A DNA stretch of 64,000 nt from assembly GCA_038062895.1 (NCBI GenBank), contig JBBTWJ010000005.1, forward strand, positions 3,715-67,714. The letters are read 5' to 3'. The stretch is from Patescibacteria group bacterium (GTDB lineage: Bacteria; Patescibacteriota; Microgenomatia; UBA10105; UBA927). Under the pieces are notes generated by a model. That model saw only the letters and a program-made list of their open reading frames with translations, made no database searches and had not been told where the DNA came from. Positions within the stretch are counted from its first letter, which is position 1. Every line of letters starts with the position of its first letter. Both the position numbers and the translations under genes were made by a program. Shown in pieces: positions 39,362-62,787 of the stretch.

Positions 39362-39469
39362 TACAGGTGCAAAATTCGTACCCCGTAAGTATACCTCAAC
39401 TGCGTGATGAAATAGAAATTTTACCGTAATAGAATAGACAAAATACACCACGTGGTGTATTTTGTCTCA

Positions 39470-42771: not shown

Positions 42772-42806
42772 CAAGGCCACCCCTTGCAAACGCCAAGGGG
42801 TGGCCT
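42772..42806. repeat. Perfect 14-bp-stem hairpin (copy 1), a likely bidirectional terminator or REP-like element
   Basis: aaggccaccccttgcaaacgccaaggggtggcctt, identical to 60675..60709. Confidence 0.75.
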
Positions 42807-42817
42807 TTAACACGATA

Positions 42818-43504: not shown

Positions 43505-43555
43505 TTTCTTAAGGTACTTCCTTGCTTCTGCAAGGAAGTACCTTGTAAAACCCTG

Positions 43556-53059: not shown

Positions 53060-54031
53060 CTAACTTTTCTTCTCCAACCGTATCCCTTCTTCTCCTAATC
53101 TGATCGGTTGAATGGAAAATCCATATGGCTTGCTTATGGCAGATATCTTATCCGGGTCTTGGGTATAGCATAATAAAAATCCCACACCCTCCGCTTTTCC
53201 GCCGCCACCGAGGATCTTCGCTGCACCTCCGGCCTTTTCAATTTTCCTGATGAGCGGAATGACTTTCCTGCTTACCACTTCCATTCCCTCCAAGCTTCGC
53301 TGTCCGGCGGTCATTGCATCCATCAATTCTTTCTCATCCCCCTCCTTGATCGCCACCGCGATATTTCGAGTTTGTATTTCATTCTCATCAAATAATCTAT
53401 TCATTCTTGACGCCTGACGCCTGACGCCTGACGCTACCAAAGAAATCATCTCCCCTGTCGTCTCCTTCGGTTTCCCGGTATTGATGAGAAAAAAATGATT
53501 GAGACTTTCGGGTATCTTGAATGGCAACTGCCAGATGCTTTTGAGAAATTCAAGTTCCTTCCGAAACCAAATAAGTCCGCCCATGGTCACCGTCGTATTA
53601 TCTCCGCCGGAAGGATTCCCGTGCATTTTTTTCTCGACTTCATAGGCAATCTGGTTAATCGCAGCCGGATTCCAAACTTTTTTAAGATAATAGGTTAGGG
53701 CTCCGACGACTCCAACGGCTACTGCGGCCGATGAGCCCAAATGATAACCGGCAGGAATATCGGAAACAACCGTAATCTTCATCGGTGGAAGATTTGCAAG
53801 TTTATACTCCCGCTTGACCACCTCAACTACATGACGGATATAGTCGGACGGCTCACTGGAGTCGATAAGTATTTTTTCTCTGGATCCCCGCGTTCGCGGG
53901 GATGACAAAGAAAGCGACTCGACAGTCACACGCAAACGGAGGTTGATGGCGGCAAGAAGCGCGGGCTTACCATAAACAACCGCGTGTTCGCCCATTAAAT
54001 GCACTTTACCGGGAACGCTTACTGTAACCAT
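53060..54031 (-). CDS. mvk: Mevalonate kinase (GHMP kinase)
   Basis: VPGKVHLMGEHAVVYGKPALLAAI...GYHLGSSAAVAVG...KILGGGG. Contains a translated palindromic element and a heptamer repeat. Confidence 0.85.
   Translation of the reverse strand: MVTVSVPGKVHLMGEHAVVYGKPALLAAINLRLRVTVESLSLSSPRTRGSREKILIDSSEPSDYIRHVVEVVKREYKLANLPPMKITVVSDIPAGYHLGSSAAVAVGVVGALTYYLKKVWNPAAINQIAYEVEKKMHGNPSGGDNTTVTMGGLIWFRKELEFLKSIWQLPFKIPESLNHFFLINTGKPKETTGEMISLVASGVRRQASRMNRLFDENEIQTRNIAVAIKEGDEKELMDAMTAGQRSLEGMEVVSRKVIPLIRKIEKAGGAAKILGGGGKAEGVGFLLCYTQDPDKISAISKPYGFSIQPIRLGEEGIRLEKKS
53399..53428. repeat. Heptanucleotide tandem repeat ([ct]tgacgc x4) inside mvk CDS
   Basis: ttgacgcctgacgcctgacgcctgacgc, translated as ASGVRRQASR. 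Confidence 0.8.
53878..53908. repeat. Palindromic element family A' inserted in-frame in mvk (translated LSSPRTRGSRE)
   Basis: ctctggatccccgcgttcgcggggatgacaa, with arms GGATCCCCGCG/CGCGGGGATC. Confidence 0.8.
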
Positions 54032-59126: not shown

Positions 59127-59666
59127 TTAAATAGAAAGGAATGCTTCTACGAACGCTTTTCTCGCTCGAAACAGTTGCGACTCTGCGCTTTTAAAGCTTA
59201 TGGTAAGTTTTTCTGCAATTTCTGAAACGCTAAATCCATCTGCGTATTTGAGAACGAGAACACTCTTATACATCGGCAGAAGCCGACCCAAGGCTCTATA
59301 AATTTTCTCCCGAAGCAGGCTCGCATCAAGCTCTTCCTCCGGTCCTAAAAGCGGAGCTACAAATGATTCAAGTTGCGGCACCGCAGAAAACACGACGTGA
59401 CGGATTTTCTTTCTCCTATACCAGTCAATCACCTTGTGGCTTGCGATCGCGTAAAGAAACGTCTTGAGCTTGGACGCTCCGGTAAAATCACGGATGGCCT
59501 CAAGAAACCCAAAAAGCGCATCTTGCAACACCTCTTCGGCATCATCGGGGTTGGCAATCTTCGCGCGGATAAAGAGACGAAGCTTCGGGGTATACATCCG
59601 GTAAAATACCGAAAGTGCCTGGCGATCGTGCGCGAGGATTTGAGTAATGAGTTCCTGGTCATTCAT
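59127..59666 (-). CDS. ECF-type RNA polymerase sigma factor (sigma-70 family)
   Basis: Region 2 (FYRMYTPKLRLFIRAKI...EEVLQDALFGFLEA) and a region-4 HTH (YADGFSVSEIAEKLTISFKSAESQLFRARKAF). Confidence 0.85.
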   Translation of the reverse strand: MNDQELITQILAHDRQALSVFYRMYTPKLRLFIRAKIANPDDAEEVLQDALFGFLEAIRDFTGASKLKTFLYAIASHKVIDWYRRKKIRHVVFSAVPQLESFVAPLLGPEEELDASLLREKIYRALGRLLPMYKSVLVLKYADGFSVSEIAEKLTISFKSAESQLFRARKAFVEAFLSI

Positions 59667-59697
59667 GAATTGAATGCAAAACGACTAAAAGACTATA

Positions 59698-60648
59698 TCA
59701 TGCTTGGCGGTTGAGCGCAAAACTTGCAAAGTCAGTAAGAAGCGCTCCCATGCCGACAGACGCATGAATCGCTTGGGTCGCCTGAGCCGTCTGCTTTCCA
59801 AGCTTCTTGGCCTGTGTGCGGAAAGCGTCCTCACCAACTTCACCATCAAGGAAATCATCGCGCAGTTGATATGCCTCTCCCACCGCCAGGCCGTACGGTA
59901 CAAACGATTCGAGCGTTTTCTCATCCGACCCGGCGATGCTCGCTCCGATCTGAAGAGGCCGGACGACGCTGTACCAAGCAGTTTTATAACGGTTAATCGT
60001 TGCCCTGTCGGCGCTGGGCAATCCAGCGGAGGCCAACACATCCAGGCTCTGACCCAAAATCACCTCTTGTTTCATTTTCTGATAATTTACCCACACGCTC
60101 GACCAATTCCGGGAATCCTTTGGATTCCCGGAATTAACGGCCCGGTTCATCAGTTCATCCGCCCACGCCAATGCGAGGTCGCCGGCGAGGATAGCCATGC
60201 TCTCGCCGAAACGCGAACTCCCCATCCGATTCCGGGAATCCAAAGGATTCCCGGAATCTAGCGCAACCTGCTTAAACTTTTCATGAACAGTGGGACTGCC
60301 GCGGCGCATCGCATCTTCGTCAATAATATCGTCATGGATGAGAGCAAACGACTGAAATAGTTCAATTCCCATCATGGCAGAGAGCACGTTGTCATCCCCG
60401 ACCCGATCGGGGATCCAGGTATTGCGCTGGATTCCCGCGTGCGCGGGAATGACAGACTGGTGCCCCAGCCATACCAGAAACGCCCGGGTCCGCTTGCCGC
60501 CGCGGGAGGTGAGATCGGCTATTTGGTCAACGAGTTGTATGGTCTGCGGATGGATGTTTTTCGCTTCACTGTGTTTGGTCGTAAAAAAGTGTTGAAGTTC
60601 ATGATCGACGTTCTTCTTGACATCATGAAGGGCTGTAGTGAGATCCAT
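59698..60648 (-). CDS. Polyprenyl diphosphate synthase (FPP/GGPP synthase family) carrying three translated palindromic insertions
   Basis: FARM motif LIHDDIIDEDAMRRG and SARM motif GEAYQLRDDFLD. Start at the Met MDLTTALHD; the longer ORF extension is encoded by an intergenic repeat copy. Confidence 0.9.
   Translation of the reverse strand: MDLTTALHDVKKNVDHELQHFFTTKHSEAKNIHPQTIQLVDQIADLTSRGGKRTRAFLVWLGHQSVIPAHAGIQRNTWIPDRVGDDNVLSAMMGIELFQSFALIHDDIIDEDAMRRGSPTVHEKFKQVALDSGNPLDSRNRMGSSRFGESMAILAGDLALAWADELMNRAVNSGNPKDSRNWSSVWVNYQKMKQEVILGQSLDVLASAGLPSADRATINRYKTAWYSVVRPLQIGASIAGSDEKTLESFVPYGLAVGEAYQLRDDFLDGEVGEDAFRTQAKKLGKQTAQATQAIHASVGMGALLTDFASFALNRQA
60105..60142. repeat. Palindromic element family B (14-bp arms) inside polyprenyl synthase CDS, translated NSGNPKDSRNW
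   Basis: aattccgggaatcc-ttt-ggattcccggaatt. Confidence 0.85.
60229..60262. repeat. Palindromic element family B, second copy, inside polyprenyl synthase CDS, translated DSGNPLDSRNR
   Basis: gattccgggaatcc-aaa-ggattcccggaatc. Confidence 0.85.
60427..60454. repeat. Palindromic element family A inside polyprenyl synthase CDS, translated SVIPAHAGIQ
   Basis: ctggattcccgcgtgcgcgggaatgaca. Confidence 0.85.
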
Positions 60649-60674
60649 GGGAGAAGTATACCAAATTTCATAAG

Positions 60675-60709
60675 GCCACCCCTTGCAAACGCCAAGGGGT
60701 GGCCTTGAA
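60675..60709. repeat. Perfect hairpin (copy 2), identical to 42772..42806
   Basis: aaggccaccccttgcaaacgccaaggggtggcctt. Confidence 0.75.
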
Positions 60710-60724
60710 AAACACATTTGAACT

Positions 60725-60752
60725 CTGGATTCCCGCCGTCGCGGGAATGACA
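60725..60752. repeat. Palindromic element family A, intergenic copy
   Basis: ctggattcccgccgtcgcgggaatgaca. Confidence 0.8.
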
Positions 60753-60804
60753 ATTCTTCGCATATTGTTGACAGTCGCCTTCAGCTTTCCGTACACTTAT
60801 ACTC

Positions 60805-61113
60805 ATGGAGCGTATCTTTGCCGTCGACCTTCAAAATACATCACCAACGTTTAGCGCGTATCCCACGTTCGGGGCATTAGTCACCATCATCGTGCGCAAC
60901 TCATTCGTGCTGGCTGGCATCATAAGCTTCCTGCTTTTGGTTTTCGGAGGATTTAGCGTTATAATGGCAGCAGGATCTGGCGACACGAAGGAGCTTGAGA
61001 AAGGTCAAAAGACGATCACGTATGCGATCCTGGGACTTATTCTCGTCGTCACGTCGTACTGGATCGTCCAGATTATCGAAAAAGTGTCGGGTGTCAAACT
61101 TATCACACCATAA
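60805..61113 (+). CDS. Pilin-like small membrane protein, paralog 3
   Basis: FGGFSVIMAAGSGDTKELEKGQKTITYAILGLILVVTSYWIVQII. Confidence 0.7.
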   Translation: MERIFAVDLQNTSPTFSAYPTFGALVTIIVRNSFVLAGIISFLLLVFGGFSVIMAAGSGDTKELEKGQKTITYAILGLILVVTSYWIVQIIEKVSGVKLITP

Positions 61114-61114
61114 T

Positions 61115-61492
61115 ATGTTCATGTTTACTTCTAAAATTTTTGCTCAAGGAAGCGCGGCAAACGACGTCGTCGGTAGTGTCACAAACCCCCTGGTGGCTTA
61201 CGGCAGCGTCACACAAGGGCTCATCCCGTTTTTTACCAATCTCATCCGCCTCATGTTTGTCGGAGCGGGTATATACGCCTTCATAAATTTCATTATTGCC
61301 GGATACCAGTATATGAGCGCGGGCGGCGATACCAAGGCGCTTGCTTCTGCCTGGGCGCGCATTTGGCAATCTCTGTTGGGGCTCGTCATCATCGTAGGTT
61401 CGTTTGCCCTGGCGGCACTTTTTGGATATCTTATATTCGGCAACGCGGGCTTTATTCTTAATCCGGTCATTTATGGACCGGGAGACAAATAA
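61115..61492 (+). CDS. Pilin-like small membrane protein, paralog 4
   Basis: Start at ATG 61115 just after the previous stop. IAGYQYMSAGGDTKALASAWARIWQSLLGLVIIVGSF. Confidence 0.65.
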   Translation: MFMFTSKIFAQGSAANDVVGSVTNPLVAYGSVTQGLIPFFTNLIRLMFVGAGIYAFINFIIAGYQYMSAGGDTKALASAWARIWQSLLGLVIIVGSFALAALFGYLIFGNAGFILNPVIYGPGDK

Positions 61493-61494
61493 CT

Positions 61495-61884
61495 ATGAAG
61501 GTGTTTGCTTCAGAACCACTTGGAACAATCGGGGGCGAGGGACTGGGACCCTGGGGCTTAATCGGAAAAAACCTTAGCGCTGATAACGGTGTTGCCGGAT
61601 TAAGAGCAGTTACCGCAACAATTTCCGGGGTCATCGGCGTCATGACGGTGGCTGCCGGCATCTGGTTTATCTTCCAAGTCCTCATCGGAGGCTTTTACTG
61701 GATCACATCAGCAGGCGACAAAACGAAACTCAATGAAGCACGCGACCGCATACAAAATGCGGCAATCGGACTCGTCGTCGTCGTCGCAGGATGGTCGATC
61801 CTCGCGCTCGCCGGACAATTCTTGGGGTACGATATTGTCATCAGCAATCCCGGAGAAGTAATAAAACAATTAAAAATACAATAA
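61495..61884 (+). CDS. Pilin-like small membrane protein, paralog 5
   Basis: IGGFYWITSAGDKTKLNEARDRIQNAAIGLVVVVAGWSILAL. Confidence 0.7.
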   Translation: MKVFASEPLGTIGGEGLGPWGLIGKNLSADNGVAGLRAVTATISGVIGVMTVAAGIWFIFQVLIGGFYWITSAGDKTKLNEARDRIQNAAIGLVVVVAGWSILALAGQFLGYDIVISNPGEVIKQLKIQ

Positions 61885-61893
61885 CAATTTACT

Positions 61894-61921
61894 CTGGATT
61901 CCCGCCTGCGCGGGAATGACA
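61894..61921. repeat. Palindromic element family A, copy overlapping the start region of the next pilin gene
   Basis: ctggattcccgcctgcgcgggaatgaca. Confidence 0.8.
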
Positions 61922-62266
61922 CACATGAATCGAACACTAGCTCAGCTTATCAATCCCGTCATCCCGGAGATCATCGGCAAGGGACCAGTCGAAAAAGGAA
62001 GTGTCGCCATCGGCATACTCCTCACACAAGTATTTAGCGCGCTTTTTTTATTCGCATTCATCACCGCATTTTTATATCTCATCACCGGAGCCATGCATTG
62101 GATCACAAGCGGTGGAGACAAAACCAAGCTTGAGGAAGCGAGAAACCGCATCATCCACTCAATCGTCGGCATCATCGTGGTGGCCTCATCATGGGCGATT
62201 ATCACGCTTATTGGTCAATTTATCGGATTGGATCTTGAAAATCTTCCGATCCCGACGATCAAATAG
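61916..62266 (+). CDS. Pilin-like small membrane protein, paralog 6
   Basis: TGAMHWITSGGDKTKLEEARNRIIHSIVGIIVVASSWAIITLI. The first ATG lies inside the repeat; the true start may be the ATG at 61925. Confidence 0.7.
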   Translation: MTHMNRTLAQLINPVIPEIIGKGPVEKGSVAIGILLTQVFSALFLFAFITAFLYLITGAMHWITSGGDKTKLEEARNRIIHSIVGIIVVASSWAIITLIGQFIGLDLENLPIPTIK

Positions 62267-62354
62267 ACCTAACCGTCTATTGACAAACAGCGTCCATTTG
62301 CAGAACAATAAGAAAGAGGATATAATCGATACTAGCTGATAAAGGAGGATCCAT

Positions 62355-62699
62355 ATGTTTGAACAAATTTTTGCCGCAGGAGAACCAACAATAACAATTT
62401 CCCGGGACAGAGCACAGTTTTTCAAAATCCAAAATTTGGGCGAGCTCATCAGTGCCGCTGTGGGCGCACTCTTGGTCATTGCCGCTCTCCTTGCGTTTTT
62501 CTTTCTTATCCTGGGTGGCATCCAGTGGATCACCTCCGGTGGAGATAAAACCGGCATGGAAGCAGCCCGCAATAAAATTACTCACGCCGTCGTGGGTCTC
62601 GTGATCGTCGGAGCCGCTTGGGCCATCATGATCCTCGTCCAGAACTTCCTGGGCGTCACGATCATCGGCGACACACTTACGCTTCCCAAGCCATTCTAA
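62355..62699 (+). CDS. Pilin-like small membrane protein, paralog 7
   Basis: Strong SD aaaggagg 6 nt upstream. LGGIQWITSGGDKTGMEAARNKITHAVVGLVIVGAAWAIMIL. Confidence 0.75.
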   Translation: MFEQIFAAGEPTITISRDRAQFFKIQNLGELISAAVGALLVIAALLAFFFLILGGIQWITSGGDKTGMEAARNKITHAVVGLVIVGAAWAIMILVQNFLGVTIIGDTLTLPKPF

Positions 62700-62787
62700 C
62701 AACTACGTGATGGGTGAATGAGGGATGAGTCAATACCATAACACTTCTGGACTTTGTTCTATAAACCCGCGATAATACAAGTATCGT

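Follow-up and report, generated by a model that had tools for sequence, protein, structure and literature searches.

The window examined here is a stretch of 64,000 nucleotides from a Patescibacteria group bacterium (contig JBBTWJ010000005.1), and our subject is a polyprenyl diphosphate synthase gene at 59698-60648 on its minus strand, which by open reading frame and translation encodes 316 amino acids plus a stop codon. Within this gene we found four hairpins of the repetitive extragenic palindromic (REP) type. A preliminary description, made from the sequence alone, had reported two perfect palindromes with 14-bp arms that lie in the same frame of this coding sequence and specify near-identical peptides. 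Both are present in the sequence; their ends are at 60105-60135 and 60228-60258, and not at 60105-60142 and 60229-60262 as given there. That description counted three palindromes in all: the third, at 60427-60454, is real, and a fourth hairpin, at 60390-60417, had been missed. The four elements, with the peptides that would be read from them, are as follows.

60427-60454, minus strand: CGTC-1-type REP unit made up of TGTC, ATTCCCGC, GCAC, GCGGGAAT and CCA; predicted peptide (S)VIPAHAGIQ, residues 65-74.

60390-60417, plus strand: second REP unit made up of TGTC, ATCCCCGA, CCCGA, TCGGGGAT and CCA; predicted peptide on the minus strand WIPDRVGDD, residues 78-86.

60228-60258: 31-bp palindrome of the G..C subtype, GATTCCGGGAATCC-aaa-GGATTCCCGGAATC; predicted peptide on the minus strand DSGNPLDSRN(R), residues 131-141, in loop 2.

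60105-60135: 31-bp palindrome of the A..T subtype, AATTCCGGGAATCC-ttt-GGATTCCCGGAATT; predicted peptide on the minus strand NSGNPKDSRN(W), residues 172-182, in loop 3.

Both 31-bp palindromes are perfect, with 14-nt arms around a 3-nt loop, and share one frame of the synthase coding sequence. The stem of the REP unit at 60427-60454 is 8-9 bp long, and the unit at 60390-60417 has an 8-bp stem and a 5-nt loop. Together these two units form a 65-bp tail-to-tail REP dimer that encodes the whole of loop 1 (21 amino acids).

The hairpins are not chance features, because exact matches to the arms of the 31-bp palindrome are confined in the window to the synthase gene, the REP pattern gives 4 matches in the window against 0.00 expected, and the hairpins have strongly negative z-scores. 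The two 31-bp palindromes have RNA folding energies of -21.8 and -23.8 kcal/mol (z = -5.3 and -5.9); for the REP dimer (60390-60454), which folds into a single long hairpin, the value is -36.8 kcal/mol (z = -4.5). When up to two mismatches were allowed, the arm pattern of the 31-bp palindrome gave 13 matches in the window against 3.4 expected, a number that none of 100 shuffles reached. A scan of 59500-62000 against Rfam at a permissive threshold returned only a chance match of a miRNA model at a neighboring 35-bp palindrome (E = 0.35).

The earlier naming of the gene as a polyprenyl diphosphate synthase gene was confirmed. Its product matches the Pfam family PF00348 (polyprenyl_synt, E = 4.5e-33), and its nearest solved relative is the GGPPS of Corynebacterium (PDB 3lk5, E = 4.7e-33). 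The first and second aspartate-rich motifs (FARM and SARM) are intact as DDIID (residues 106-110) and DDFLD (residues 264-268), and both are invariant in our alignment of homologs (A1). An AlphaFold2 (AF2) model built on this alignment (predicted local distance difference test score (pLDDT) 90.5, predicted template modeling score (pTM) 0.90) retrieved GGPPS/FPPS structures with a probability of 1.00 in Foldseek and shows the isoprenyl diphosphate synthase fold. The product thus has the features of a trans-isoprenyl diphosphate synthase, that is, the PF00348 fold with the DDxxD motifs of FARM and SARM; the GKxxxxDxxxGKxT region C-terminal to SARM was not found. A C-terminal segment of ~60-70 residues after SARM is missing in all orthologs from the candidate phyla radiation (CPR) (columns ~455-520 of A1; 59698-59850 of the window), and is kept in the actinobacterial homologs and in a Woykebacteria homolog (P0115). 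Given the lack of this post-SARM region, the catalytic competence of the CPR synthase is not certain. The homologs nearest to the synthase come from Candidatus Gottesmanbacteria and the Patescibacteria group, and the neighborhood of the gene is kept among orthologs, with T4SS-pilin-like genes (T4SS, type IV secretion system), the synthase gene, an extracytoplasmic function (ECF) sigma factor gene, a small open reading frame (ORF), Yip1, and genes of the mevalonate or methylerythritol phosphate (MEP) pathway. This conserved neighborhood argues that the synthase is a resident enzyme of isoprenoid chain elongation.

All four elements map onto three inter-helix, non-helical segments of the AF2 model, in agreement with the earlier suggestion that they occupy surface loops. 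Loop 1 is a coil (residues 67-83, with pLDDT < 50 at residues 72-81), loop 2 is a turn (133-137) between helices 121-132 and 138-172, and loop 3 is a coil (173-181) between helices 138-172 and 182-207. Between fixed landmarks, loops 1, 2 and 3 span 21-57, 20-60 and 28-61 residues in the CPR orthologs; in the actinobacterial relatives, loops 2 and 3 are constant at 36 residues. The loops of the query are only ~5-7 residues longer, per loop, than those of the nearest ortholog and of 3lk5, so that the description of the elements as insertions stands insofar as the loops exceed those of homologs, and overstates the net excess. Its claim that homologs have only ~3 residues between the PTxH and AILAGD motifs was incorrect, since the nearest homologs and 3lk5 have 15-20 residues there. 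The elements would therefore be only partly extra relative to homologs.

The same loops hold other repeat-derived sequences in the orthologs. The VIPAHAGIQ...WIPDxVGDD dimer is also present in loop 1 of two orthologs (P0019 and P0003), and the same composite occurs at locus L079. The closest element-free ortholog (P0002) has a different REP dimer at the same site of loop 1, of the type VIARSE...EIASP...TRND with the same GTCATT...AATGAC ends, which is shared with other orthologs. Another ortholog (P0006) has SGLRAGIQ...WIPGQARDD in loop 3, and the DSGNPxDSRN element is present in four others (P0028, P0029, P0032 and P0038), where it occupies loop 1, 2 or 3. The synthase loops are thus hot spots for repeat-derived sequence.

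We compared the REP units with the class of CGTC-tagged REPs, whose definition calls for a CGTC/TGTC tag, a stem of 8-9 bp that begins with A/T pairs, a loop of 4-5 nt and a CCA tail (Di Nocera, De Gregorio & Rocco 2013, PMC3733652). In that study, CGTC-1 and CGTC-4 are equated with the Rickettsia palindromic elements (RPEs) RPE-6 and RPE-4, the class takes in Neisseria dRS3, and single units and dimers within genes for tRNA synthetases, for pseudouridine synthases and for DNA repair encode 20-30 amino acids (PMC3733652). The window units share all of these marks. TGTC precedes both intragenic units of the synthase (60451-60454, minus strand; 60390-60393, plus strand), their stems start with AT and take the form ATTCCCGC-GCAC-GCGGGAAT (8 bp, 4 nt) and ATCCCCGA-CCCGA-TCGGGGAT (8 bp, 5 nt), and CCA follows the stem in all five units of the window, as ...AATCCAG or CTGGAT.... 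These five CGTC REP units occur in 64 kb where 0.00 are expected, so that they form a dispersed family. The units outside the synthase gene are the following.

60727-60751, plus strand: CGTC-1 REP, intergenic; it lies upstream of the synthase gene, within the divergent promoter region.

61896-61920, plus strand: CGTC-1 REP, intergenic, between two T4SS-pilin-like genes.

53882-53906, plus strand: CGTC-1-type REP, GGATCCCCGCGTTCGCGGGGATGAC, lying in frame in the mevalonate kinase gene at 53060-54031 (minus strand); predicted peptide SSPRTRGSR.

Therefore, three of the five units are coding, two in the synthase gene and one in the mevalonate kinase gene. The latter gene was identified by TIGR00549 (176.6 bits, above cutoff), and its REP coincides with a variable stretch of the alignments to PDB mevalonate kinases. 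A second isoprenoid-pathway enzyme of the window thus also holds an in-frame REP. As in the published class, the units of the window are both single and dimeric, and both intergenic and in frame inside genes, and the dimer of the synthase is within the 20-30 amino acids reported there. The peptide types VIPAxAGI, SFPRxRES and WIPAxAGMT are also shared: the R. conorii intragenic CGTC-1 peptides are given as VIPAKAGI, SFPRKRES, CHSRESGNP, DSRFRGND and WIPAFTGMT (PMC3733652 supplement), and the peptides VIPAHAGIQ, SFPRRRESR and WIPACAGMT match this list. Two differences are that the synthase dimer is tail-to-tail, an arrangement called rare in that paper, and that the host phylum is new, the paper reporting five phyla, mostly Alphaproteobacteria (PMC3733652). 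The CGTC REPs found here are a known kind of element in a new host phylum. The preliminary description had likened its palindromes to the ORF-invading elements of Rickettsia, and this was essentially right, the third element belonging literally to the RPE-6 class (CGTC-1).

The 31-bp palindrome is a different matter. Its consensus is RATTCCGGGAATCC-nnn-GGATTCCCGGAATY. A scan of one genome per GTDB species yielded 18 copies with a 3-nt loop, all in metagenome-assembled genomes (MAGs) of Gottesmanbacteria/Patescibacteria, and in 18 of 18 the three bases outside the searched pattern complete the 14-bp arms. A scan of metagenomes, in which eight arm positions were left free, gave a bimodal result: 31 copies had no arm mismatch, two had one, and the rest had at least five and lay in unrelated genes. 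These last were rejected as family members (for example, a gut 'DSGNPGDSQID' gene), as were pattern matches with a loop other than 3 nt, which are hairpins of unrelated taxa (Thermomonas, Lachnospiraceae and others). No match was found in a scan of viral contigs. The pooled copies represent 36 distinct contexts at about 16 distinct sites, all coding. The location of 16 of 16 sites in genes has a p of about 0.2 at an assumed coding density of ~90%, and is not meaningful alone. Over the 36 contexts, the terminal pair is G..C in 25, A..T in 11 and mixed in none, and the loop takes 12 different triplets with an even base composition. The 31-bp palindrome is a separate family, confined in our scans to Gottesmanbacteria-type assemblies. 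The earlier reading of the palindromes as repeat elements is borne out, the 31-bp palindrome being present in related genomes at 16 or more further coding sites. Three MAGs in the Third Party Annotation (TPA) records labeled 'uncultured Gammaproteobacteria bacterium' (CAZLDC01, CAYNJY01 and CAYHFH01) carry Gottesmanbacteria-type genes (L005, L016, L027, L030, L033, L036, L039 and L045); one of them has a protein that NCBI elsewhere names as Patescibacteria, and the taxonomic label looks wrong.

The hosts of this family that could be assigned by Pfam are RecR, AspRS, an AMP-binding ligase, RluA, a thiolase, GT2 and GT4 glycosyltransferases and an IS200-like Y1_Tnp protein. A class I tRNA synthetase, probably ValRS, was recognized by eye from its KMSKS motif, and a transketolase-like C-terminal fragment likewise by eye; a small conserved protein and several membrane proteins are hosts as well. 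None of the six frames of the element contains a stop codon. Frame usage is nevertheless uneven, at 13:2:1 for DSGNPxDSRN, RFRESxGFPES and IPGIxxIPGI (chi-square p about 3e-4), and this bias implies selection on the translated product; it is the one available sign that copies are translated and filtered as protein.

We also examined the age of the copies. In loop 2, the spacing of the palindrome, 8 codons from the preceding TVH and 6 from the following FG, is identical between the query and three other genes (P0029, P0032 and L050; ~44% protein identity), and a fourth ortholog (P0028) has a symmetric centre-deleted derivative, GATTCCGGGT-ta-ACCCGGAATC, at the same place. Loop 3 also has orthologous copies, of the G..C subtype in P0028 and reading DSGNPADSRN in P0038. 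Given that orthologs only ~44% identical share the palindrome at the exact codon position, the insertions are neither private nor recent.

Next, we compared the nucleotide conservation of the arms with that of their surroundings. In 30 orthologous pairs from nine host sites, identity was 71.2% over the 120-nt flanks, 99.2% in the arms and 30% in the loop. Because pattern searches are biased to perfect copies, we also examined copies that had been identified through protein homology, namely those of the synthase orthologs, of three RAYT-like genes (RAYT, REP-associated tyrosine transposase) and of one RecR. The DSGNP-frame copies found in this way showed no change at any third codon position of the arms, while the neighboring codons differed freely. 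The mismatches in this sample were a single non-synonymous change in P0032, another in L114, and a single synonymous G>T change in the RecR copy (L113). Since third positions of the arms are unchanged in the DSGNP frame and adjacent codons differ, the constraint on the arms acts on the nucleotides and not on the peptide, in all three frames, and it is not absolute. The retention of perfect arms points to a DNA- or RNA-level function or to an active renewal of copies, and does not tell the two apart. The suggestion that the palindromes are selfish DNA merely tolerated by the enzyme is accordingly not established, the arms being conserved at synonymous sites next to flanks that have diverged by ~30%. 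Both single-mismatch variants of the pattern scan (L084, 2526-2556, the P0032 ortholog; L103, 11410-11440) have CCCGG changed to CCTGG in one arm, and this may mark a deamination-type hot spot at the CCSGG core.

Decayed forms of the 31-bp palindrome were found as well. Among the 120 RecR homologs listed, the linker that is the palindrome site could be parsed in 81 and ranges from 2 to 28 amino acids: it is 2 amino acids (empty) in 12, 6 amino acids in 44 and 12 amino acids in 10. All ten of the 12-amino-acid linkers carry an RFRESxGFPESG-type element, three of them with one substitution. In a collapsed copy (L109), only a single 13-nt GATTCCCGGAATC is left, as a deletion between the internal GATTCC direct repeats predicts, and another copy (L110) is rearranged. 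Among the RAYT-like proteins (n = 68), nine have the full element peptide and 22 a partly decayed one. The RecR gene of L108 (1501-2112), which is 92% identical to a palindrome-bearing RecR, has four tandem CGTATCA heptamers as its linker (peptide TSHVSR); the linker is a general hot spot of insertion and deletion.

The RAYT-like gene is of special interest among the hosts. Its product matches Y1_Tnp (PF01797, E = 1.9e-13), and over a broad clade the 31-bp palindrome lies in frame between its YIHxNP and YPYSS motifs. A search of the PDB with the protein sequence gave no match. The palindrome was located in the following RAYT-like genes.

L011, 689-719: palindrome in a RAYT-like gene.

L103, 11410-11440: palindrome in a RAYT-like gene.

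L104, 4661-4691: palindrome in a RAYT-like gene.

L111, L112 and L114: palindrome in a RAYT-like gene.

Based on these observations, we propose that the three variable loops of this CPR synthase hold in-frame REP-type hairpins, that the 31-bp family among them is old, vertically inherited and conserved in its arms, and that a RAYT-like enzyme is its likeliest agent, a reading that we hold to be rather probable. In this proposal, the elements of loops 2 and 3 would be a miniature REPIN-like inverted doublet (REPIN, a REP doublet forming a hairpin) specific to Gottesmanbacteria-type genomes. Each arm would correspond to a CGTC REP minus its inner stem-loop, that is, ATTCC[CGC-loop-GCG]GGAAT with the CC(A) tail facing the loop, and the 31-bp palindrome may have originated as a tail-to-tail dimer of such centre-deleted CGTC REPs, as far as the sequences alone can suggest. 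The element would survive where the hydrophilic, turn-forming DSGNPxDSRN lands in a permissive linker or loop. Copies would then be old and vertically inherited at fixed sites, with arms kept identical and a 3-nt loop drifting freely, and would be lost in the end through collapse between the GATTCC direct repeats within the element, through deletion of the centre or through point decay. The likeliest agent to recognize, spread or maintain them would be the RAYT-like HUH/Y1 (IS200-like) enzyme of the same lineages. In a genome with little intergenic space, a REP/REPIN-like element may persist only in such a coding-compatible form.

Several results weigh against this proposal. The copy number of the 31-bp family is low: a MAG holds 1-6 exact copies and the 64-kb window 2, which is unlike REPIN or RPE populations. 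The flanks of the 36 distinct copies showed neither a target-site duplication nor a target consensus, and no transposition event was seen among the copies. For neutral selfish DNA, one would not expect perfect arms to be retained while the flanks diverge by ~30%. The only NCBIfam match of the RAYT-like protein, to REP-associated tyrosine transposase, scored 53 bits and so fell below the cutoff of 80. A search for palindromes flanking RAYT-like genes (the REPtron arrangement) found none, and a tblastn search of the window with RAYT-like proteins matched only the palindrome-encoded peptides and no RAYT-like gene. Finally, exact insertion boundaries, sought against the closest element-free ortholog (P0002), could not be defined, since that ortholog is only 68% identical and its loops are filled by other sequence.

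The main rival to our proposal is that the 31-bp palindromes are not mobile DNA at all, but host-selected cis-elements in coding sequence, such as an mRNA hairpin concerned with processing, stability or translational pausing, or a DNA site for a dimeric protein. Much of the evidence would suit this explanation: each arm contains a 13-bp palindrome, GATTCC(S)GGAATC, repeated at 18-bp spacing; arms invariant at synonymous sites stand beside diverged flanks and a random loop; the terminal base pair covaries as A..T or G..C and is never mixed; the few copies sit at fixed, orthologous sites; the hairpin is highly stable as RNA (about -22 to -24 kcal/mol); and a copy is kept inside the RAYT-like gene over a broad clade. 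However, the hosts are functionally unrelated housekeeping genes, and many orthologs lack the element or have collapsed or decayed copies, such as RecR orthologs that lack it at 92% identity. Unrelated REP families occupy the same loops of other orthologs, and there is no Rfam match. We therefore regard the cis-element explanation as unlikely, although it keeps an appreciable chance. A variant of our own proposal is that the palindrome is a functional nucleotide element maintained in housekeeping coding sequences, a coding-compatible miniature REPIN system with a domesticated RAYT-like HUH enzyme whose own ORF bears this hairpin, in which the arms would be the recognition site and the loop a hypervariable codon; we offer this only tentatively, and it could easily prove wrong.

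The remaining explanations fit the data far less well. The two synthase copies have loops (TTT and AAA) that are reverse complements and centres 123 nt apart, a multiple of 3, and conserved arms around a variable spacer recall the sites of a site-specific recombinase, each copy being readable as 11-bp arms round a 7-bp spacer, CCnnnGG; the intervening 123-bp segment could then be inverted. However, the inverted segment in the required frame runs into TAA directly after the palindrome, one copy per gene is the case in most hosts, the loops vary freely from ortholog to ortholog, and no recombinase is linked to the copies in the loci examined, so that such inversion is very improbable. That DSGNPxDSRN is a selected protein motif or an ancestral loop sequence, with incidental palindromy of the DNA, would explain the peptide at the same positions in orthologs. 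It would not explain why the same 28 nucleotides are conserved in the three frames DSGNPxDSRN, RFRESxGFPES and IPGIxxIPGI, nor the lack of synonymous variation in the DSGNP-frame copies ascertained by protein homology, and the peptide is missing from actinobacterial and Woykebacteria homologs; we give this idea almost no credence. Hardly any weight, either, attaches to a molecular drive like that of DNA uptake sequences, or to an assembly artefact. DNA uptake is attributed to CPR bacteria, and the sequence is invariant across species. However, a density of 1-6 copies per MAG, or 2 in 64 kb, is far too low, the copies occupy orthologous positions in independent assemblies (NCBI, ENA, JGI and Logan), and the viral contigs have no matches.

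Our proposal can also be set against known systems. RPE-1-type elements, which Ogata and colleagues are said to have described in 2000, are reportedly about 100-150 bp long and encode 30-50 amino acids. Like them, the elements found here are dispersed palindromic repeats in frame in housekeeping ORFs, compatible with the fold and located in loops, and the hosts in both cases include tRNA synthetases and pseudouridine synthases. They differ in length, the 31-bp palindrome encoding 10-11 amino acids and the 65-bp REP dimer 21, and the 31-bp family differs further in its perfect palindromy, its hypervariable 3-nt loop, its low copy number and its occurrence in a free-living or episymbiotic CPR lineage. 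Uptake signal sequences and DNA uptake sequences (USS/DUS) have a frequency of about one per kb and do not take the form of 31-bp palindromes. With them the 31-bp family shares an invariant short motif that is tolerated in ORFs and favors certain frames and less constrained protein regions, but its density is orders of magnitude lower. Transposable elements of the miniature inverted-repeat type (MITEs) combine terminal inverted repeats with target-site duplication, whereas here the inverted repeat makes up the entire element.

REPINs are about 100 bp long, are present in hundreds of copies, are almost exclusively extragenic and GTAG-tagged, and flank a RAYT gene (Bertels & Rainey 2011, PMC3116915; bioRxiv 10.1101/2021.07.10.451892). 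The 31-bp family resembles them as an inverted doublet of a ~14-nt unit that forms one hairpin, and shares with them vertical inheritance, long persistence, a conserved 'master' sequence and an IS200-like HUH/Y1 transposase homolog in the same lineages. However, it is only 31 bp long, has 1-6 exact copies per MAG and lies in coding sequence at all of its ~16 sites, and its palindrome is inside the RAYT-like ORF instead of flanking it.

Other palindromes were noted in the window and in related loci. Two identical 35-bp palindromes, AAGGCCACCCCTTG-caaacgc-CAAGGGGTGGCCTT, lie at 42773-42807 and 60672-60706; both are apparently intergenic, the latter a short way upstream of the synthase gene. At the equivalent position, L044 (3983-4015) has a related AAGGCCAGGCCTTGC-gtg palindrome, and the 35-bp type looks like another repeat family. 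A further family of 14+3+14 architecture, TAGCTTCGCAAGGC-ctg-GCCTTGCGAAGCTA, occurs in L030 (2864-2892 and 4935-4965) and L032 (3577-3609), ~0.2-2 kb from a palindrome of the 31-bp family in these two loci, and one copy is in an open frame (TSFARPGLAKL). Two perfect palindromes unrelated to the families studied here lie at 39436-39467 (16-nt arms and no loop, AGACAAAATACACCAC/GTGGTGTATTTTGTCT) and 43511-43544 (15-nt arms and a 4-nt loop, AAGGTACTTCCTTGC). The synthase gene also adjoins a run of genes for small TrbC/VirB2-like membrane proteins of the T4SS-pilin type (60805-62700), whose counterparts in syntenic loci carry Pfam PF18895, with the order kept in all loci examined.

We searched the literature for reports of REPs or palindromic elements from CPR/Patescibacteria, as well as for the element and peptide sequences themselves, and found nothing relevant. 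The preliminary description had held that such elements were not described for genomes of this type, and this agrees with our search insofar as no CPR/Patescibacteria paper was found; intragenic REPs are known in other phyla. REP-type elements lying inside genes and apparently read in frame therefore appear to be new for a CPR bacterium. The 31-bp perfect-palindrome family, with its invariant arms, free loop, exclusive location in genes so far and RAYT-like association, also appears to be new.

CPR/Patescibacteria genomes are tiny and gene-dense, with almost no intergenic space, and in them REP-type hairpins persist inside genes. The hairpins are housed in permissive loops of essential enzymes, including those of isoprenoid synthesis, RecR and tRNA synthetases. 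The 31-bp family provides an unusually clean case of DNA- or RNA-level constraint on coding sequence, with defined routes of decay, and is a tractable system for studying REP/REPIN-like recognition and maintenance. It also calls for caution, in that repeats may be the source of loop 'insertions' and of odd low-complexity peptides seen in proteins of CPR bacteria.

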